In this document: positions 5,683 to 56,133 of the stretch, piece by piece
Position numbering within the stretch: the first letter of the stretch is position 1
How the letters are laid out: each line of letters opens with the position of its first letter
DNA from: an uncultured Gammaproteobacteria bacterium
Lineage (GTDB): Bacteria > Patescibacteriota > Microgenomatia > CAYXHB01 > CAZYTL01
DNA: 64,000 nt
NCBI GenBank assembly: GCA_964650355.1
Contig: CAZYTL010000001.1
Coordinates: 85,552-149,551, forward strand
Direction: 5' to 3'
Notes under the pieces: generated by a model
Database searches by the model: none
The model's input: the letters and a program-made list of their open reading frames with translations, nothing else
Told to the model about the DNA's origin: nothing
Translations under genes and position numbers: made by a program

Positions 5683-5804
5683 TAAACTTTCCTCATGAGT
5701 TTACCCCAACCCGGAAGGTAAGTAAATCAAGAGTCACACGGGGATTATTAGTTTTTTCAAACCGATAATTATGATATCACCAGGTTGGGTGGTAAAATAG
5801 CATC

Positions 5805-6497
5805 GTGGATCCCGATGATGACGATTACGATATTTTCAATCCTCAAATTGGAGGGGGCTCTATAATACCAAAGCATATGCCAAGCGAAGAAGAAAAACTA
5901 TATCACGAACTAATAGGTAAATATCAGGGGACCATAGGAGAAACAGGAACAACCACAGAAAAAGTGATGTGGGAATCTGTCAATGCAGTTTTGCAACAGT
6001 TGGTGGACAAAGGGCATAGCCATTACTCCAGATTCATGATAGAGCCAACCAAATTGGGGCCAAGTGATTTTGTCAACTTTGGTTCCTTTCGCTCACAACT
6101 CATGAGTGCTTTACAAAGAATGTCACAAGATTTCGATTTGGCAGATCCCAGTTATTTAATCTATGAACATATGCCTAAATCTAACGCACAGATAAGTAAT
6201 CAAGCAATCTCTTCACCCATTCAGAGCAATAACCAGAGTCAAACTCAACAGCAAAGCCAAGAAGTTGAATTGTCTATCGATCAGAGAATCTCGTTAATAG
6301 AACAAGAATTAGAAGAGAAACTTACTGAAGAACAGCTAACAGAAATAAAACCGACACTGGAGGAATTTAAAGCAGAACCGACTAAATGGAGTAAAGCTTC
6401 CAAACTAATCAAGGCTGTATTGGGACTCAGCAAAGATGTAGCTGTAGGTGTAATTTCAAATATTGTAGCTACTCAAATAGGTTTCCCCCAAGTTTAA
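5805..6497 (+). CDS. Hypothetical protein, acidic N-terminus (MDPDDDDYD), Q/S-rich linker and coiled-coil C-terminus
   Basis: ORF with coding-like composition and no recognisable catalytic motif. Confidence 0.45.
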   Translation: MDPDDDDYDIFNPQIGGGSIIPKHMPSEEEKLYHELIGKYQGTIGETGTTTEKVMWESVNAVLQQLVDKGHSHYSRFMIEPTKLGPSDFVNFGSFRSQLMSALQRMSQDFDLADPSYLIYEHMPKSNAQISNQAISSPIQSNNQSQTQQQSQEVELSIDQRISLIEQELEEKLTEEQLTEIKPTLEEFKAEPTKWSKASKLIKAVLGLSKDVAVGVISNIVATQIGFPQV

Positions 6498-6516
6498 GAT
6501 AGCTGTTTTTCTCTCC

Positions 6517-6612
6517 CTAATCATCGTCATCTTGATTCAACCAGGGCGGTAGTGTAGTTGTGGTCTTAGAAGAAGCTACTCTCGGTGGGGTAGAGGTTGA
6601 GCTAGATGTCAT
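6517..6612 (-). CDS. Micro-ORF, 31 aa (MTSSSTSTPPRVASSKTTTTLPPWLNQDDDD), ATGA-coupled to upstream gene
   Basis: Its ATG (6612-6610) overlaps the TGA stop (6611-6609) of the 6609..7238 gene. Ser/Thr-rich with a DDDD tail. Not in the ORF track because it is under 60 aa. Confidence 0.2.
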   Translation of the reverse strand: MTSSSTSTPPRVASSKTTTTLPPWLNQDDDD

Positions 6613-7238
6613 AGTTTAAGATCTTTAACCATACTTGGGTGAGGTAGTGAAGCACCCGATACTGGAGTTGAATATAGTTTTGCGATATCAGGATCTACTT
6701 TAAATTTTAGATTACCCTTAAATTGATTATTGTATCTGTTTACCATCAGCTCCATCAATTTTGTATCTGTTTTTAGAACCTTCTTAAGTTTTTCCACAGC
6801 CAATTTGAAAGCTTCGGCAAATTGGTCTGCGTCTAAAACTAAATGATTGTTTTCAACAGTGAAGGGATCTGCTTTAGTTCGACTAATTCCAGCTGCCTTT
6901 GCAAAGTAATTGTGAGCCAACCCGTTGCGGAAAATGTTTACAAAATTCCTTCTATGTGGTTTTAACTTTTCTTTGAAATCATCTGGAAAATAGTCATCAA
7001 TAAAACCCATTATGCTTGCTTGGGCATATCCTTTCTTGGGTAAGGACTTTCCTGAAAAAGTTAGTTGACCTAAGAATTCAACACATGCAAACGTATAGAG
7101 TGCAATGGGAAAATTGCAGTTACCAGCAGCTCCAGAGCGATGAGGAATGCTTGTTAGTCTCTCAAGATCGGTTAGCATCCAGCCATCAACGACTTCGGCT
7201 ATAAAATAATCTAAAATTACGGTCTTATTTTTGTCCAT
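6609..7238 (-). CDS. Hypothetical protein with HEPN-like Rx4HxY motif (possible Abi/HEPN RNase)
   Basis: IFRNGLAHNYF matches the HEPN R-X4-H signature. No other assignable domain. Confidence 0.45.
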   Translation of the reverse strand: MDKNKTVILDYFIAEVVDGWMLTDLERLTSIPHRSGAAGNCNFPIALYTFACVEFLGQLTFSGKSLPKKGYAQASIMGFIDDYFPDDFKEKLKPHRRNFVNIFRNGLAHNYFAKAAGISRTKADPFTVENNHLVLDADQFAEAFKLAVEKLKKVLKTDTKLMELMVNRYNNQFKGNLKFKVDPDIAKLYSTPVSGASLPHPSMVKDLKL

Positions 7239-7318
7239 ACAATTTTATCTTTGGTTCCAATTATACATTCCAGCCACATATTCTTAAAGTTTCTAGGCTC
7301 AAGTAGTAAAATAAGAGA

Positions 7319-8053
7319 ATGAAAGAGGAAGCTATCAAATTACTAGCCAAAACTGACGAAACTCTACTGCTCGGTAAAAAGGGATTAGCGAGAGTTACTG
7401 AAACAAATGAGGTTGAAAAAGAACTAAAGACTTTTTTGAATGCCAACTTAGATTTTGACTCAGAACTTGGCAGAGAATATGAGAAGTGGAGCAAAACCAC
7501 TATTTGGAAGACTATCCCAGGGGATGGTTTTGCAAATCAAAGCTATATATCTCCTATAATCATGTTGAGAGATTTCCTTACAAGGTTTTTGGACGTGAGC
7601 GATATTCAAGCACCGCCCACACAACAATATGTTAAAACTGGAGAGGTCTACACAGGAAGAAAAGTTTTGCGGGACATTTTAAGCCGAGCAAAAAATAAGA
7701 TTGACGTTCAAGATAACTATCTGGACCAAGAAATATTTGCCATCCTCCAACCATATTTTGAAAATAATGCAAATATCGAAGTTAGGCTCTTAACAAATCA
7801 AGCAAACAACGCTTTTAAATCCGACTTTGATGTTTTTAGTAAGCAGTATGGGAGAGCAAAAGCAAAGTACAACAATCAAGCCCACATCAGATTAATAATT
7901 TTAGATTCTAATGAGGTATTTAGTATTGGTCATTCCCTCAAAGACGTTGGAAAAAAAGCTGATGCAGTTTCAAAGATCGAGGATGATGATGCGAGGAAAA
8001 AGGCAATAGACGATTTTGAAAGTTGGTGGAAAAACGGGACTCAAATAAATTAA
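7319..8053 (+). CDS. Hypothetical protein (244 aa); weak PLD-like H-x-R-x4-D...G-H-S segment near C-terminus
   Basis: AHIRLIILDSNEVFSIGHS loosely resembles an HKD motif with R in place of K. Divergent from the HEPN-like gene. Confidence 0.45.
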   Translation: MKEEAIKLLAKTDETLLLGKKGLARVTETNEVEKELKTFLNANLDFDSELGREYEKWSKTTIWKTIPGDGFANQSYISPIIMLRDFLTRFLDVSDIQAPPTQQYVKTGEVYTGRKVLRDILSRAKNKIDVQDNYLDQEIFAILQPYFENNANIEVRLLTNQANNAFKSDFDVFSKQYGRAKAKYNNQAHIRLIILDSNEVFSIGHSLKDVGKKADAVSKIEDDDARKKAIDDFESWWKNGTQIN

Positions 8054-8209
8054 TTTTCGAAAGCGAAGTCTGACTAAAAGCCATTAGGGGTTCGAACCTC
8101 GTTACCGGTATTTCTCATTTCCAGGCTAACTCCTAAAAAACAAAAAACCTGGCTCGTATTTACCTCACTGAAGCTCTGGCGAAGCGGGTCAGATTATTTA
8201 TTTTCAGGC

Positions 8210-8467
8210 CTATTTGTCTAGTTTCTTCTGGGAGTACCCTTTTAGTTTTCTTCTTCCTGCCCCACTTTTCCACCAATTCTCTCGTTTTCTTGCTTCTTTT
8301 AATGATTCGAACTCTTCAATAAACAACACCCTAAAGGGAATTCTATGTTTTGTAGACTTAACTTGACCAGAATTATGTTGTTTAAGTCGCCTCGTGAAGT
8401 CGCTGGTTGAATCCACATATGTTCTGCCATCAGGCAAACTTTGCAGAATATACGTAGTAGCAGGCAT
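8210..8467 (-). CDS. GIY-YIG nuclease family protein (YhbQ/UPF0213-like, 85 aa)
   Basis: YILQSLPDGRTYVDSTSDFTRRLKQHN (GIY...YVG core) and the conserved R...E...K tail. Immediately downstream of tRNA-Gly. Confidence 0.75.
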   Translation of the reverse strand: MPATTYILQSLPDGRTYVDSTSDFTRRLKQHNSGQVKSTKHRIPFRVLFIEEFESLKEARKRENWWKSGAGRRKLKGYSQKKLDK

Positions 8468-8537
8468 TTTTATAATACAAGGGAGCGGGCCCCGCCCTCT
8501 GGGCGAGGTGCCTCGCTCAAGCGCCTTTGGCGACTTG

Positions 8538-8608
8538 AGCGGGATACGGGGGTCGAACCCGTCTTTCTACCTTGGGAAGGTAGCGTTGAGCCGCTCAACT
8601 AATCCCGC
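8538..8608 (-). tRNA. tRNA-Gly(CCC)
   Basis: Reverse complement GCGGGATTAGTTGAGCGGCTCAACGCTACCTTCCCAAGGTAGAAAGACGGGTTCGACCCCCGTATCCCGCT folds as a cloverleaf. Acceptor GCGGGAT/ATCCCGC, anticodon stem CTACC/GGTAG with loop TTCCCAA, T-arm ACGGG-TTCGACC-CCCGT. No encoded CCA. Confidence 0.75.
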
Positions 8609-9419: not shown

Positions 9420-9533
9420 TCCTTTCTAGGGCAGAAAAGCGATAATTAGTTACCAGTTTCAAGTTTTTAGCTAGTCTTTTCTTTTATAGTTTGTTGTTCA
9501 ATAACCAGAAACTTTAAACTGGATACTTTATTG

Positions 9534-9607
9534 CGGGACCGACGGGACTCGAACCCGCGACCTCCTGCGTGACAGGCAGGCGCTCTAGCCAACTGAGCTA
9601 CGATCCC
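9534..9607 (-). tRNA. tRNA-Asp(GTC)
   Basis: Reverse complement GGGATCGTAGCTCAGTTGGCTAGAGCGCCTGCCTGTCACGCAGGAGGTCGCGGGTTCGAGTCCCGTCGGTCCCGC. Anticodon loop CTGTCAC, canonical D and T arms. Confidence 0.85.
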
Positions 9608-53491: not shown

Positions 53492-53548
53492 TCCTTAAGA
53501 TTTACTGCCTTAAAAGTGTTTCCTATTTTTAATTCTCAAATTGAGTCG

Positions 53549-53590
53549 AAGGCCGAGCAGGCCGGTCTAGGACCGCTCAGGCCTTTTTAA
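53549..53590 (+). terminator. Branched GC-rich hairpin + T5
   Basis: aaggccgagc...(ggtc-tag-gacc)...gctcaggcctt + ttttt. Confidence 0.5.
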
Positions 53591-53641
53591 CGATTGTCTC
53601 AGATTTAGGCTAAATAAGATAACAAAACAGGGCAACGATAA

Positions 53642-54763
53642 CTATAATGCTATATTATTCATCAGAATCATTCCATTATACTTAACAATCACGTTCTCAA
53701 CTTCCCTGAATTCTTGTTTGTATTTTTTCTTCAAAGTGTCGATCATTTTGGATATTTTAATTAGCATCCTAGAAGAACTGGAGGGACTCCTGCCCGGTTT
53801 TCGAAATACAGAGGATTTACTAAGCACGCTTTCTAAAACAAACTCCGTATAGTACCAGTCCCACTTAAATTCCTTGAAGACTGTTTCTCTCAATCTTAGT
53901 TCAATTTCATGTTTGAGGCTGTTCTTACGGGTGTCTTTTATAAGTTTATCAAGATCTATATTGTTAAAAATTGGAGCTATTCGTGGCTGCTTCTCAATTT
54001 CCGCTAATCCTTTGAGATAATATCTTTCACATAGCTTAACCAATCTATCTAACTTGTCACGTTGACGTTTTTGTGGAGCCCGAAGTTTGTATATCCGAAA
54101 TTTTTTACCATTAAATTCTGTAGTCATTTCTCGAATAAGAATAACTTCTGGCTTAATAATTAAATCGATAAACACAACCCTTTTCCCATCTGATTTTCCC
54201 CAGATTTTAAGTGCATTACCTGAGTAATCCATTTTCCAGATATGTTGTGTGTCAATTCTAAGCTCATTGTCTTTAACAAGATAAACTGGATTATCGTTCT
54301 GAACACGAGCTAAAATGCTGAGTTTCAAAATCCCTGAAGAAAGATCGACGGACAGTAATGAATGTCTTCCAGAGAGGTTAAACAAAGATGTTCTTTCTCC
54401 ATGGCTAACAAAACTTGAGCCAATGAAAAAGGAATAACCTCTTTTTCTCTCTAATGGAAATTTATCTACTAATACTAAAGGTTTAGCTGGCCTTGCCTTA
54501 TATTTATAAAGTTCTTTTTTTGAAAAAAAACAACCACCCCTTCCGTGAATGCGTCTATGACACTCATCACAAATTGGGATTAGGTACCTTTCGTCATTCG
54601 AAAATTTCTTTGACCATTCTTCAATATGATGAAATACAACTGGGATTTTGCCGCAAATGGAACAACTAAAGCGCGATTGAGATAAAAGTCTCTGTTTTGC
54701 ATCAGCTTTGATATACTCTCTAGCGTTGTGAATACAAGTAGAATAACTCATTTTTGTTTTCAA
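53642..54763 (-). CDS. HNH (His-Me finger) nuclease-domain protein with ~300 aa uncharacterised C-terminal region; AT-rich
   Basis: CSICGKIPVVFHHIEEW...LIPICDECHRRIH (C-x2-C...HH...C-x2-C-H). Confidence 0.6.
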   Translation of the reverse strand: MKTKMSYSTCIHNAREYIKADAKQRLLSQSRFSCSICGKIPVVFHHIEEWSKKFSNDERYLIPICDECHRRIHGRGGCFFSKKELYKYKARPAKPLVLVDKFPLERKRGYSFFIGSSFVSHGERTSLFNLSGRHSLLSVDLSSGILKLSILARVQNDNPVYLVKDNELRIDTQHIWKMDYSGNALKIWGKSDGKRVVFIDLIIKPEVILIREMTTEFNGKKFRIYKLRAPQKRQRDKLDRLVKLCERYYLKGLAEIEKQPRIAPIFNNIDLDKLIKDTRKNSLKHEIELRLRETVFKEFKWDWYYTEFVLESVLSKSSVFRKPGRSPSSSSRMLIKISKMIDTLKKKYKQEFREVENVIVKYNGMILMNNIAL

Positions 54764-55006
54764 ACTTCTATAGAGTTTACGGTCGCTTAGTGTCCAATCG
54801 TGCTGTAGGGCTAGGATTCCCGCCTACCCTTGCCTGTCGTCTTAGTTGATTGCAACTGCGGCGGCAGGGACGTAATCGGCGGACACAGCGAACAGATTGC
54901 ATTTTTCTATTAAAAGTTATTCTAACACATTTTCACTTCAGCCCTTCTTTTATCAATAAATAGTCCGGCAATTCTTCATGTCCGTTTATTGTTGTCCCAT
55001 ATCTGG

Positions 55007-55696
55007 TTAAGGTCCGTCTACTTCACCCCGGAAATCGCTTGTTCTTGGTTGGAGAGCAACCGCCAAATTTCTCACCTGGAGATACCGGGCCATAGCTATT
55101 TCATAACGGGAATTTAAATATTCACCCTGATCTGCTTGCCTTCTGGTATTGGGATTACAGCTAAAAAACAATGCCTGGTCCATCGTGGCCGGCGCTAAAA
55201 ATCTCCACTCTATCATAAATTTAGAATCGAAAGAAACAAACGAACCTAATCTCCAATTGAAAGCGTTAGTTCTATTCAGTGCTGCTAATGCTTGATCGTA
55301 ACCCATTTCTGCTTCTCCTAAATATAATCTCTCACCTCCAACTACTTGTCGATATAGGCGGAGAGCGTCCTCGAAAACTTGGAAAGTGAAATCTTCCCCT
55401 CTAATTCCCAAAGGATTAAACTGATCTTCCTTAATTTGGGCGGAAATTGTCCCTTCACTAAGTGGGCGAGAAAGAAGAGGACAGGAACGCAGATTATTAA
55501 TGGGGTAATTGTCTAACCATTTCCATCGTCTTCCCCAAAGACAAACCTGACCAATAGGTTCATGAGCAGCAGCCCAGGTGTGATTGACTACCATCCTGTT
55601 AAATTCACAATCAGGACAATCCCTAGTCGGGCGTTTTCTGTCTCCATAACGAAGATGGGAATCTGGTAGATTATAGACATCGATTTCCTTAGACAT
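55007..55696 (-). CDS. Hypothetical protein (229 aa, CPDCEF Cys pair), GC-richer
   Basis: ORF overlapping the GIY-YIG stop by 8 nt. Confidence 0.45.
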   Translation of the reverse strand: MSKEIDVYNLPDSHLRYGDRKRPTRDCPDCEFNRMVVNHTWAAAHEPIGQVCLWGRRWKWLDNYPINNLRSCPLLSRPLSEGTISAQIKEDQFNPLGIRGEDFTFQVFEDALRLYRQVVGGERLYLGEAEMGYDQALAALNRTNAFNWRLGSFVSFDSKFMIEWRFLAPATMDQALFFSCNPNTRRQADQGEYLNSRYEIAMARYLQVRNLAVALQPRTSDFRGEVDGP

Positions 55697-56006
55697 AAGT
55701 TTTGGTTTTTAATTCTTCGAAGCTTTCTTTCAGCATTATTTTTATCGCCTTTTTACCGGCGGTTGTTTTAAAGTATTTTTCTCTTCTCAAAGCGTCTTTC
55801 TTGGAGTAAAAATATTCACAAAAAATTAGTCTTAATGGCCTTCTGGGCGCAGTAGCTTTTGAATTACCGCGAAAGTGTTCTGTTAACCTCTGTTTTAGAT
55901 CTGAAGTGAAGCCGATGTATAATTGACCGTCTTTTTCGCTAAGAAGAACATATACGCACCAGTTGAGTTTAGTCATCTTTGTTTCTGAAGAATCATCTCG
56001 GGCCAT
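55689..56006 (-). CDS. GIY-YIG nuclease family protein (YhbQ-like, 105 aa)
   Basis: WCVYVLLSEKDGQLYIGFTSDLKQRLTEHF and REKYFK. Immediately downstream of tRNA-Gln. Confidence 0.75.
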   Translation of the reverse strand: MARDDSSETKMTKLNWCVYVLLSEKDGQLYIGFTSDLKQRLTEHFRGNSKATAPRRPLRLIFCEYFYSKKDALRREKYFKTTAGKKAIKIMLKESFEELKTKTYV

Positions 56007-56059
56007 AAAGTAGAACGAAGTTCACTTTACGGCCATGAAGTGATCTCTGATCTACTTCA

Positions 56060-56133
56060 TGGCTGCGGGGCATGGATTCGAACCATGATAGACGGCTCCA
56101 AAGGCCGCAGTCCTACCGTTAGACGACCCCGCA
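56060..56133 (-). tRNA. tRNA-Gln(TTG) with encoded CCA
   Basis: Reverse complement TGCGGGGTCGTCTAACGGTAGGACTGCGGCCTTTGGAGCCGTCTATCATGGTTCGAATCCATGCCCCGCAGCCA. U1-A72 pair, anticodon loop CUUUGGA, T-arm CATGG-TTCGAAT-CCATG. Confidence 0.8.

Follow-up and report, generated by a model that had tools for sequence, protein, structure and literature searches.

Stand-alone GIY-YIG genes behind paired hairpins at tRNA 3' ends: candidate compact selfish cassettes

We describe an arrangement, widespread and apparently undescribed, in which a stand-alone GIY-YIG protein of about 85 aa is encoded behind a conserved double hairpin set directly on the 3' terminus of a tRNA. Two such pairs occur in the window (the whole 64-kb stretch of DNA that was analyzed) and, judged from the loci collected from metagenomes, the pairing with a tRNA is a property of both protein families involved, not of the window alone. 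We propose with moderate confidence that each pair represents a compact selfish cassette, consisting of a palindromic leader and a gene for a predicted GIY-YIG nuclease of roughly 85-95 aa, lodged at the tRNA 3' end. The searchable literature holds no report of tRNA linkage, leader hairpins or insertion signatures for UPF0213, the protein family concerned.

Two tRNA and GIY-YIG pairs in the window

ARAGORN called three tRNA genes in the window, with concordant results from Rfam, and an HMM scan of all six frames found only two GIY-YIG ORFs, hereafter A and B. Their positions are as follows.

8537..8608, minus strand: tRNA-Gly(CCC) (ARAGORN; Rfam tRNA, 56 bits), CCA not encoded
8543-8537, minus strand: X1, CCCGCTC, the terminal 7 nt of tRNA-Gly (tRNA positions 68-74)
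8210..8467, minus strand: ORF A, predicted stand-alone GIY-YIG nuclease gene of family A (UPF0213/Slx1-like), 85 aa
9533-9607, minus strand: tRNA-Asp(gtc) (ARAGORN)
56060..56133, minus strand: tRNA-Gln(UUG) (ARAGORN, Rfam), CCA encoded at 56062-56060
55689..56006, minus strand: ORF B, predicted stand-alone GIY-YIG nuclease gene of family B, 105 aa as the longest ORF

Two of the three tRNAs precede the sole two GIY-YIG genes of the window, a situation expected by chance with a probability of roughly (3/60)^2. The earlier note had proposed two same-strand pairs of a tRNA and a paralogous GIY-YIG gene, and both were confirmed: tRNA-Gly(CCC) is followed after 69 nt by ORF A and tRNA-Gln(UUG) after 53 nt by ORF B, the two proteins being 41% identical over 73 residues (E 1e-19). 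The likely start of ORF B is Met11, at position 55976, where the homologues begin; the protein would then have 95 aa and the gap to the tRNA would be 83 nt. At the other end, the stop of ORF B and the beginning of the following ORF (55007-55696) overlap.

Both proteins matched the Pfam GIY-YIG family PF01541 well above the cut-off of 22.6 bits (A, E 1.5e-12, 48 bits; B, E 1.3e-17, 64.3 bits). The domain covers residues 4-72 of the 85 residues of A in a single-domain architecture, and domain scans revealed no second domain in either A (85 aa) or B (105 aa). The catalytic residues Tyr6, Tyr17, Arg27, His31 and Glu63 are all present in both window proteins. Across 22 aligned sequences, Y6, Y17, R27 and E63 never vary and H31 hardly does, and there is no C-terminal Asn-containing extension. 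In window copy A, an Asp replaces the Gly of the 'YIG' motif. The label 'YhbQ-type', given previously to these proteins, is upheld by the structure matches of the family profile, in which the best solved relatives (E about 1e-10) are the UPF0213 proteins 1ZG2 (E 2.3e-10) and 1YWL (9.5e-10), with eukaryotic SLX1 entries more weakly matched at 1e-4 to 1e-2. A and B belong to the same family as UPF0213/COG2827, which includes E. coli YhbQ, B. halodurans BH0048 (1ZG2) and E. faecalis EF2693 (1YWL) and whose members consist of a minimal GIY-YIG domain alone (PMC1564403). The scores of A and B against TIGR01453 (17.6 and 22.6 bits) were below its cut-off of 56.05.

Linkage to tRNA genes and the leader modules

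In family A, a tRNA lies 53-232 nt upstream on the same strand in 38 of the 51 distinct assessable metagenome loci (p 9e-39 against a background of 5%), and each of the 38 is a tRNA-Gly (27 tcc, 7 ccc and 4 gcc). The module is also present in the remaining 13 loci, most of which show a degenerate tRNA 3' remnant. In family B, a same-strand tRNA with the module at its end was found in 8 of 10 contexts, one of them (L105) with an uncalled tRNA 3' end; the called tRNAs are Gln, Tyr (twice), Asn (twice), Glu-ttc and Glu-ctc, and the hosts are CPR bacteria and Bacteroidales. A contig search with a single protein returned only 3 loci, and a combined alignment of A and B was too divergent for pattern search.

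Several GIY-YIG paralogues may be found per genome, including tandem examples. Two loci (L081, L062) have solo modules without an ORF, which counts against the cassette reading. CPR cassettes were also found inside tRNA arrays (L057, L073). Moreover, unoccupied tRNA-Gly genes share contigs with occupied ones, as in L073, where two different tRNA-Gly(UCC) genes occur and only one of them has a linked cassette.

The spacer behind tRNA-Gly holds what we call module A, with a further element after the gene.

8519..8536, minus strand: hairpin 1, AAGTCGCC AAA GGCGCTT, its first base directly after the tRNA (fold)
8511..8518, minus strand: X', GAGCGAGG, the complement of CCCGCTC with the A bulged (regex census, alignment)
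8490..8510, minus strand: GC-rich core of hairpin 2, CACCTCGCCC AGA GGGCGGGG (fold)
8483..8489, minus strand: X2, CCCGCTC, repeating the tRNA-Gly 3' terminus, 15 nt 5' of the ATG
8182..8188, minus strand: X3, a weak third copy, CCCGCTT in CTGACCCGCTTCGCC, 21 nt past the stop codon

Loci of family A carry a segment, GAGCG(A)GG, that can pair with the tRNA-Gly 3' terminus (CCCGCUC), and a duplicate of this terminus lies immediately 5' of the ATG. The segment GAGCG(A)GG (X') is nearly invariant in 30 aligned family A loci and has two pairing options, the tRNA 3' end (X1) or the downstream copy (X2), with the MFE fold for the spacer alone giving X1. Compensatory changes were found at all 7 pairs of hairpin 1 (16 loci). 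MAFFT alignment of all 30 spacers misaligned this hairpin, and a length-matched subset and a covariance model (CM) were used instead. The closing pair of hairpin 2 covaries from C-G to U-A. For module A, 95.7% of the cells are paired against 78% in shuffles, and the covariation score of 0.436 (0.133 in shuffles) was reached by none of 500 shuffles. The CM matched the window once (8483-8545, 54.3 bits, E 2e-12), about 60 family A loci and no family B locus; likewise, the module A pattern has a single occurrence in the window and matched none of 100 shuffles. The distance between X2 and the ATG has a median of 11 nt (53 loci), and in the window no Shine-Dalgarno-like motif lies between them. We considered whether a CCA after X2 would prove X2 to be the original tRNA end and rejected this argument, as the CCA was found in only 8 of 53 loci, a weak enrichment.

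Module B, behind tRNA-Gln, consists of two hairpins.

56033..56062, minus strand: hairpin 1, CCA TGAAGT A GATC AGA GATC ACTTCA TGG (fold)
56003..56032, minus strand: hairpin 2, CCGTAAAGT GAAC TTC GTTC T ACTTTATGG (fold)

The closing pairs of hairpin 1 are drawn from the tRNA's own CCA. Hairpin 2 is hairpin 1 inverted (a single pattern fits both, hairpin 1 being matched on the other strand) and it contains the first in-frame ATG of ORF B. The fold of the spacer has a z of -7.6, 12 pairs show compensatory changes with a score reached by none of 500 shuffles, and the hairpin 1 pattern is unique in the window. Neither spacer has an Rfam match, only tRNA being above the gathering threshold; the sub-threshold matches represent noise or overlap with the tRNA.

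The leader complement to the tRNA 3' terminus is 7-8 nt long and specific for tRNA-Gly in family A, and is restricted to CCA in family B. Such a specificity fits the confinement of A to tRNA-Gly and the occurrence of B behind several tRNAs. The earlier note had left insertion at the tRNA and a functional link as alternatives; our data support tRNA-targeted insertion together with a physical link in cis, as the leader hairpins start at the tRNA 3' end and can pair with it.

Insertion signatures and alternative explanations

A signature of insertion at the tRNA 3' end is seen in a Bacteroidales locus (L085), in which a 680-bp family B cassette is flanked by a 31-nt, 97% direct repeat of the 3' part of tRNA-Asn and the distal copy retains the terminator. 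In family A, 17 of 65 loci have displaced ends of the CCCGCTC type up to 80 nt past the stop codon, whereas such ends occur in 6% of control windows (Fisher p 6e-7). In L038, the displaced end and its flank align with the end and flank of uninterrupted tRNA-Gly genes (L043 and L061). Additionally, in three loci (L073, L057, L055) another tRNA follows 2-24 nt after the ORF stop codon, and in others a displaced tRNA 3' end stands directly after the ORF. No clear case of a displaced end is present in the window itself. X3 is possibly a degenerate one, and such a lone instance is not significant by itself.

A further insertion signature comes from L011, the nearest relative and the only syntenic one found. 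There, a 512-bp insertion bearing a GIY-YIG gene of a third family (C) lies within the anticodon loop of a tRNA-Gly, whose joined halves are identical to the window tRNA-Gly(ccc) at 66 of 72 positions. The window tRNA-Gly is the empty allele relative to this cassette, which brings a complete second tRNA-Gly(ccc). Between the window and L011, GIY-YIG A shares 72% identity, whereas the flanking LysM protein shares 39%. Universal core synteny, which according to the earlier note would speak against its reading, holds in part: the adjacency of tRNA-Gly(ccc) and GIY-YIG gene is kept in L011, but the downstream content is different. The comparison gave no allele pair at strain level for the window cassettes; the relatives of AlkD, used for synteny at the tRNA-Gln locus, reached at most 64% identity.

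An all-against-all blastn search found no near-identical cassettes in unrelated flanks, and therefore recent transposition is not demonstrated. The pair L006 and L009 (93.5%), a candidate for such an event, is explained by an IS-like insertion.

From these features we infer both the mobility of the cassettes and its mechanism. Neither spacer has a promoter-like site or a terminator, and the GIY-YIG gene would lack a promoter and be expressed through read-through transcription from the tRNA promoter. The module hairpins, which in module A would give a 12-bp helix resembling an acceptor stem and ending in CCCGCUC, may permit tRNA maturation and free an mRNA with a short leader and no Shine-Dalgarno motif. 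The nuclease has no DNA-binding domain and would read structure, namely hairpin or cruciform DNA of the module and tRNA gene end, and nick there. Recombination or repair at the nick would then copy the cassette into unoccupied tRNA genes, with duplication of the tRNA 3' end. It is rather doubtful that the leader acts, beyond this, as a nucleic-acid guide, its hairpin-foot strand (GAGCG(A)GG in A, TGG in B) pairing with the 3' nucleotides of the tRNA gene or transcript and choosing the target for the roughly 85-aa nuclease. Such a guide would make the cassette a minimal hairpin-guided homing system for tRNA ends, re-targetable via the complement, and a minimal programmable nuclease of this kind would be of interest.

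Alternatively, the pairs may represent host operons, in which a long-resident, vertically inherited nuclease is co-transcribed with the tRNA and acts on the locus or its product, either by processing the trailer or precursor or by resolving structures at heavily transcribed tRNA genes, with the hairpins as ordinary processing or stability signals. We regard this as unlikely, although several observations agree with it, such as the fixed orientation and spacing, the spacer without a promoter and the strong purifying selection within family A (dN/dS 0.04-0.18). Moreover, the adjacency shared by the window and L011 was kept despite saturated synonymous sites. The combination of low dN/dS and saturated synonymous sites between syntenic relatives fits long vertical residence and a selected function, unlike typical decaying homing-endonuclease genes. 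The absence of the family from phage records and its near absence from plasmid records point in the same direction; a phage origin was rejected as there were no matches in phage records, and a plasmid origin as plasmid records gave only two weak matches. A scan of viral contigs for family B was likewise empty. Nevertheless, one protein family is found behind different tRNAs, with several paralogues per genome that may also be in tandem, and unoccupied tRNA-Gly genes stand beside occupied ones on one contig (L073), none of which is favorable to a host operon. The displaced tRNA 3' ends, the 31-nt flanking repeat and the tRNA gene disrupted by the cassette in L011 argue against it as well, as does the identity of about 70% between family B proteins of CPR bacteria and those of Bacteroidales or Verrucomicrobiota.

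It seems improbable that the tRNA is itself part of the cargo, that is, that the mobile unit comprises tRNA, module and GIY-YIG gene and that the constant tRNA-Gly of family A reflects co-transfer. The complete second tRNA-Gly(ccc) inserted in L011 would be accounted for in this way, and so would the link of one of the two tRNA-Gly(UCC) genes of L073 and the weak tendency of tRNA identity to rise with protein identity (Spearman 0.087, p 0.012). However, homology among unrelated loci starts at X' or hairpin 2, 40-70 nt before the ATG, leaving the tRNA outside. The linked tRNA bodies are diverse (about 70% identity among loci) and follow the host lineage, and in family B one module is associated with at least four tRNA identities. 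Finally, the displaced tRNA 3' ends indicate that a resident tRNA gene was hit. Isoacceptor switching was also considered as a proof of mobility, because the anticodon is unlinked to the protein tree (p 0.58). Yet anticodon point changes in one tRNA lineage can explain such mixing (the tRNA bodies of L080 and L083 are near-identical but carry CCC and UCC), and therefore this argument is not relied on here.

Still harder to sustain is an RNA decoy or toxin-antitoxin-like pair, in which the module RNA binds the nuclease or is cut by it, curbing its activity on tRNA 3' ends. Type III toxin-antitoxin loci, in which tandem RNA repeats and a terminator precede the gene of an endoRNase toxin that processes the repeats, have structured repeats directly 5' of a small nuclease gene, resembling this layout (the window spacers lack a terminator), and at least 10 relatives have 2-3 tandem copies of module A. 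Besides, hairpin 2 and X2 of family A mimic the acceptor stem of tRNA-Gly, mirroring G1-C72, C2-G71, G3-C70 and U73. The window, however, has a single module copy, the family B hairpins show no tRNA mimicry, and RNase activity is not known for the UPF0213 family. The wobble pairs also lack a strand bias (16 G.U against 13 A.C among the stem mismatches), a balance compatible with structures acting either as RNA or as DNA.

The genes downstream of the two pairs were read in the earlier note as parts of islands led by the GIY-YIG genes and carrying nuclease-type genes. Three of them are listed here.

6609-7238: ORF of 209 aa, no family match
7319-8053: PLD-like ORF of 244 aa, candidate defence family PDC-S05 (E 2e-26)
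53642-54763: HNH ORF of 373 aa (Pfam HNH, E 9.6e-5)

The HNH assignment stood, and the 'HEPN-like' one was lost with the missing family match of the 209-aa ORF. Integration at the tRNA of an island of several genes (HNH, PLD-like and others) is very improbable and largely refuted: although the downstream genes are poorly conserved, including the PDC-S05 candidate and the HNH protein, the GC content of both segments is slightly low (0.37-0.38 vs about 0.42) and the window and L011 differ in what lies downstream, the ORFs of 5805-8053 and 53642-55696 have no recombinase domain, the far boundaries have no tRNA 3'-end repeats, tblastn found no homologues of five downstream window proteins (229 aa, HNH 373 aa, 209 aa, PLD-like 244 aa and 230 aa) in about 110 other GIY-YIG loci, and elsewhere another tRNA or a displaced end bounds the cassette 2-30 nt past the stop codon.

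The tRNA 3'-end repeats predicted at about 5700-5800 and 53500-53640 were absent in repeat scans and mismatch-tolerant searches, and with up to 3 mismatches no further copy of either tRNA 3' end was found in the window, only chance-level 11-mers. An 11-nt repeat, TGCCTTAAAAG, at 53506 and 56137 was rejected as an att repeat, being at chance level. In place of a multi-gene cassette, the unit comprises the hairpin module and the ORF only, about 0.33-0.7 kb. On the comparison of sequences, the HNH and PLD-like neighbors are placed outside it, as unrelated cargo of a variable region.

Significance and comparison with known systems

The link to tRNA 3' ends, which is family-wide and lineage-specific, provides a concrete, testable role for the old and widespread UPF0213/COG2827 (YhbQ-like) family. 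If mobile, the cassettes would be among the smallest autonomous elements known, with roughly 350 bp and one 85-aa protein, and, by way of split tRNA genes, replacement copies and tandem stacks, a force acting on the tRNA genes of CPR bacteria and Bacteroidota. The cassettes also mark tRNA-adjacent variable regions that gather defence-type genes.

Messages located 3' of a tRNA are found in tRNA-mRNA co-transcripts matured by tRNA processing enzymes, such as that of the E. coli thrU-tyrU-glyT-thrT-tufB operon, and MALAT1 mascRNA is an example of a tRNA-like 3' element. The cassettes are alike in having a coding message 3' of the tRNA and a tRNA-like structure as a possible processing signal, but the gene behind the tRNA encodes a predicted nuclease, present in multiple copies and with a patchy distribution.

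As in islands and prophages that integrate into tRNA genes, the 3' part of the tRNA is targeted, the tRNA remains intact and a partial 3' copy is found at the far junction (31 nt in L085). In contrast with integrase islands, the cassette has no recombinase and only one gene in 0.33-0.7 kb, and the leader of family A uses the duplicated segment again, as a strand of its conserved helix.

The Seg genes of T-even phages are similar in that a GIY-YIG gene lies among tRNA genes, as in L057 and L073. SegB is a free-standing GIY-YIG homing endonuclease gene of the T4 tRNA gene cluster that promotes the inheritance of itself and of the flanking tRNA region (PMC2330249; PMC13096335). Seg proteins have DNA-binding modules, whereas the cassette proteins (85-105 aa) have only the catalytic domain. 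Moreover, the cassettes differ from Seg genes in being chromosomal, without phage matches, and in that their hairpin leader is conserved and the tRNA 3' end duplicated.

The IS200/IS605 and REP/BIME-RAYT systems also have imperfect palindromes by a small nuclease gene, with a hairpin-foot strand that complements the flanking target, and BIMEs are made up of paired inverted hairpins as in family B. However, the enzyme here is GIY-YIG and not HUH/Y1, and each module is found once in the 64-kb window. A Verrucomicrobiota locus (L093) has REP-like multiple copies and a Y1_Tnp neighbor, being the sole locus with such a neighbor.

Two tRNA and GIY-YIG gene pairs

Only three tRNA genes were found in the 64 kb of the window (ARAGORN, with Rfam in agreement), and two of them are followed on the same strand by a small GIY-YIG gene, as the earlier note had proposed. 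We refer to the ORF behind tRNA-Gly and its relatives as family A, and to its paralogue behind tRNA-Gln and the relatives of that as family B.

8210-8467, minus strand: family A GIY-YIG ORF, 85 aa, 69 nt downstream of tRNA-Gly
8537-8608, minus strand: tRNA-Gly(ccc)
9533-9607, minus strand: tRNA-Asp(gtc)
55689-56006, minus strand: family B GIY-YIG ORF, 105 aa, 53 nt downstream of tRNA-Gln
56060-56133, minus strand: tRNA-Gln(ttg)

Both ORFs matched the Pfam GIY-YIG model well above threshold, and their products are 41% identical. A six-frame HMM scan of the 64-kb window revealed no GIY-YIG ORF beyond these, so that the only such genes present follow two of the three tRNAs. The label "YhbQ-type" is also supported, since the family A profile matches the solved structures of the UPF0213 proteins 1ZG2 and 1YWL (E ~1e-10) and, more weakly, eukaryotic SLX1. 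The names of the nearest database proteins place the host among Microgenomates-type CPR/Patescibacteria.

The association with tRNAs is a property of the GIY-YIG families, beyond the window. In a metagenome scan with the family A alignment we gathered 80 loci (numbered with the prefix L, as are the other loci fetched for comparison) and called their tRNAs with ARAGORN. A same-strand tRNA lies 53-232 nt upstream of the ORF (median 81 nt) in 38 of the 51 distinct loci with sufficient upstream sequence (binomial p 9e-39 against a 5% background), and it is always tRNA-Gly (27 UCC, 7 CCC and 4 GCC). The other 13 loci keep the leader module described below, mostly after a degenerate tRNA 3' remnant, GGTTCGAGC...GCTC. 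Directly upstream of a family A module that has lost its tRNA (L006, 1479-2204) there is a 241-aa ORF whose C-terminal region, judged by eye, resembles T5orf172/MUG113.

Family B, sampled through contig look-ups, has more varied partners: tRNA-Gln in the window, tRNA-Tyr in Daviesbacteria and Roizmanbacteria, tRNA-Asn in a Paceibacterota and a Bacteroidales, tRNA-Glu(UUC) and tRNA-Glu(CUC). At L105 the ORF comes after a tRNA 3' end that ARAGORN did not call. The Verrucomicrobiota locus L093 is the sole sampled family B locus that shows no tRNA; several REP-like copies of the family B hairpin (CCTGAAGTGAG...CTCTACTTCAGGG) lie on either side of its ORF (2200-2930), and its upstream neighbour is an IS200-type Y1 transposase gene.

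Near-identical tRNA-Gly bodies with different anticodons (CCC and UCC) were observed at L080 and L083, and two dissimilar tRNA-Gly(UCC) genes on one contig (L073, 288-902), suggesting anticodon remoulding among the tRNA-Gly genes of these CPR genomes. The mixing of anticodons in the protein tree was rejected as a sign of mobility, as anticodon point changes can account for it.

A structured leader complementary to the tRNA end

The recurrent unit consists of a tRNA, a leader module and a mini-nuclease gene, in which the structure of the leader is conserved and its sequence is complementary to the tRNA end. In family A the order, 5' to 3', is a tRNA-Gly without encoded CCA that ends in CCCGCTC (X1), a highly variable AT-rich hairpin 1, GAGCG(A)GG (X'), a hairpin 2 core (YTCGCC...GGCGR), a second CCCGCTC (X2) and, after a median of 11 nt with no Shine-Dalgarno-like motif, the ATG. 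CCCGCUC corresponds to positions 68-74 of tRNA-Gly and takes in the C2:G71 pair and U73, which are glycine identity elements. Pairing of X' with X2 would form a 12-bp helix that mimics the upper acceptor stem of tRNA-Gly. X' is also able to pair with the tRNA end proper, X1. In the predicted minimum-energy fold of the window tRNA-Gly and spacer, the tRNA 5' strand pairs with X2 and X1 with X'.

In a 16-sequence alignment of family A, 95.7% of cells were paired, compared with 78% in shuffles and 37-51% in slid controls. Two-sided changes occurred in all seven hairpin 1 pairs and in four around hairpin 2 (its closing C-G/U-A pair plus three in the core), with a covariation score of 0.436 against 0.133 and none of 500 shuffles as high. 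The X':X2 pairs are invariant in the alignment and speak neither for nor against the structure. Searched with a covariance model of these 16 sequences, the window gave a single strong match (8483-8545, minus strand, 54.3 bits, E 2e-12). About 60 family A loci matched strongly on the sense strand, and no family B locus did. At least 10 loci carry tandem duplicates of the module. Solo modules behind tRNA-Gly, with no GIY-YIG ORF, occur at L062 (296-2490) and L081 (5047-5176, minus strand); at L062 about 2 kb of unrelated genes separate two identical modules, with a degenerate tRNA 3' remnant just before the second.

Family B has a module of its own, again a double hairpin beginning where the tRNA ends. 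Its hairpin 1 reads CCA/TGAAGT-A-GANN...NNTC-ACTTCA-TGG, the closing pairs being formed by the tRNA's own CCA or, with tRNA-Tyr and the Bacteroidales tRNA-Asn (CCA not encoded), by the last bases of the tRNA. Hairpin 2 is an inverted version of hairpin 1. In six sequences covering four tRNA identities and two phyla, 90.8% of positions were paired against 79.6% in shuffles, 12 pairs had compensatory changes and 0 of 500 shuffles scored as high. Neither module matched an Rfam family.

The complement to the tRNA end covers 7-8 tRNA-Gly-specific nt in family A and the universal CCA in family B. The longer complement parallels the narrower target range (tRNA-Gly only, against several tRNAs), a correlation with no cause demonstrated. 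The data do not tell whether the spacer hairpins act as RNA or as DNA. No promoter-like site was found in the tRNA-Gly and tRNA-Gln spacers of the window, and for this reason the GIY-YIG genes would be transcribed from the tRNA promoters, with the hairpins possibly serving as processing and stability signals.

Duplicated and disrupted tRNA genes

tRNA ends are duplicated, and at least one tRNA gene is disrupted by a related cassette (module plus ORF). The Bacteroidales locus L085 has a 680-bp stretch with family B modules and ORF between direct repeats of the 3' part of tRNA-Asn (31 nt, 97%), and the distal copy is followed by the apparent native terminator of the tRNA. In L105 a distal copy of the tRNA 3' end measures 16 nt. 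Of 65 distinct family A loci, 17 have a third CCCGCTC-type copy no more than 80 nt past the stop codon, compared with 6% of control windows (Fisher p 6e-7). This displaced copy often reaches the T-stem 3' strand and is followed by CA. The uninterrupted tRNA-Gly genes of L043 and L061 have a 3' end and flank that align with the copy in L038 and its flank.

Among the fetched loci only L011 shares synteny with the window, in the order tRNA-Asp, LysM protein, tRNA-Gly(ccc), family A ORF. Its orthologue of the window tRNA-Gly(ccc) (1856-2441) is interrupted at the anticodon loop by 512 bp. The insertion holds a two-hairpin block (TCCGCC...GGCGGA) and a repeat of it, encodes a 91-aa GIY-YIG protein of a third family and carries a second tRNA-Gly(ccc) that is complete and differs in its acceptor stem. 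The joined halves are identical to the window gene at 66 of 72 positions and are called tRNA-Gly(ccc) by ARAGORN, so that the window, with its intact orthologue, represents an empty allele for the L011 cassette.

Occupied and unoccupied tRNA-Gly genes occur together on single contigs (L073, L057, L071), and in 14 loci a 5-kb stretch contains two or three GIY-YIG ORFs. The cassettes are tightly bounded, with the next tRNA 2-24 nt past the stop codon in L073, L057 and L055.

Further fragments were noticed. The displaced tRNA-Asn copy of L085 (2880-2938) retains 8 nt of the anticodon stem, with a TCCGCC TTA GGCGGA hairpin in place of the anticodon loop, which may be the footprint of another cassette since the hairpin is of the L011 insertion type. 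In the window, a T-arm-like fragment, AGGGGTTCGAACCTCGTTACCGG, followed by TTCCAGGCTAA, lies at 8086-8108 (plus strand), opposite in strand to the family A gene and about 100 nt past its stop; neither ARAGORN nor Rfam called a tRNA on it. Antisense copies of it also lie behind the family A ORFs of L006, L039, L044, L046, L048 and L072, and variants behind those of L011, L023, L033, L042, L056 and L071.

Selfish elements, host genes or islands

Based on these data, we lean towards regarding the cassettes as tRNA-targeting selfish mini-elements. SLX1 cuts branched and stem-loop DNA, and by analogy structure-directed nicking could spread the cassette. The mobile reading has its weaknesses: a search among unrelated flanks turned up no near-identical cassettes, and some modules stand alone with no ORF. 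Residence also looks long and partly vertical. Family A has dN/dS of 0.04-0.18 in 12 pairs, indicating strong purifying selection. Between the window and L011 the GIY-YIG proteins are 72% identical and the neighbouring LysM proteins 39%. Family B proteins of CPR, Bacteroidales and Verrucomicrobiota share about 70% identity between groups. No member of the GIY-YIG family turned up in 50,697 phage records, and hardly any in plasmids. The catalytic residues conserved across 22 homologues are present in both window proteins. At residue 19 the family A protein has YVD (Asp for Gly), where more than 90% of homologues have YVG/YIG, a change that may or may not affect activity.

A host operon with a tRNA-related function is unlikely, if still worth considering. 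That the tRNA is itself cargo of the mobile unit, as the second tRNA-Gly within the L011 insertion might evoke, seems improbable, and an RNA decoy or toxin-antitoxin-like pair even more so.

The cassettes and their proteins can be compared with known systems. In every feature tested the window proteins belong to the UPF0213/Slx1-like branch of the GIY-YIG superfamily. They fall outside the I-TevI/Seg homing-endonuclease class because they have no DNA-binding region and score below the TIGR01453 threshold. The proteins may nonetheless work like SegB, which sits in the tRNA cluster of T4 (PMC2330249). The cassettes resemble integrase-driven islands in the duplicated tRNA 3' end, but have no recombinase; with IS200/IS605 and REP/RAYT they share hairpins and target complementarity, but their enzyme is another one and they are not dispersed, each module occurring once in the 64-kb window. 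In the full-text literature searched, which is an incomplete collection, neither UPF0213 genes linked to tRNAs nor the leader modules are described; because of that incompleteness we do not take the arrangement as categorically new.

The multi-gene island of the earlier note, led by the GIY-YIG gene, is hardly credible: neither tRNA 3' end is repeated at any other place in the window, none of the window's five downstream genes has homologues in about 110 other GIY-YIG loci, and in L011 the gene after the family A ORF is unrelated to them. The HNH assignment in the note is supported.

7319-8053, plus strand: PLD-like protein, 244 aa, candidate anti-phage defence family PDC-S05 (E 2e-26 and 8e-24)
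53642-54763, minus strand: HNH-domain protein, 373 aa, HNH domain match

Both are more likely to occupy a variable stretch beside a tRNA than to belong to a GIY-YIG-led cassette. The PLD-like ORF, with only a sub-threshold Pfam PLDc_2 match, converges on the family A gene. The family B stop codon overlaps, at 55689-55696, the ATG of a 229-aa ORF with no family match, making translational coupling possible; this ORF was not seen beside other family B genes. The HNH protein has a sub-threshold match (27 bits, against a cut-off of 175) to the HNH region of the model for the RNA-guided endonuclease IscB, most likely reflecting shared HNH-domain similarity only.
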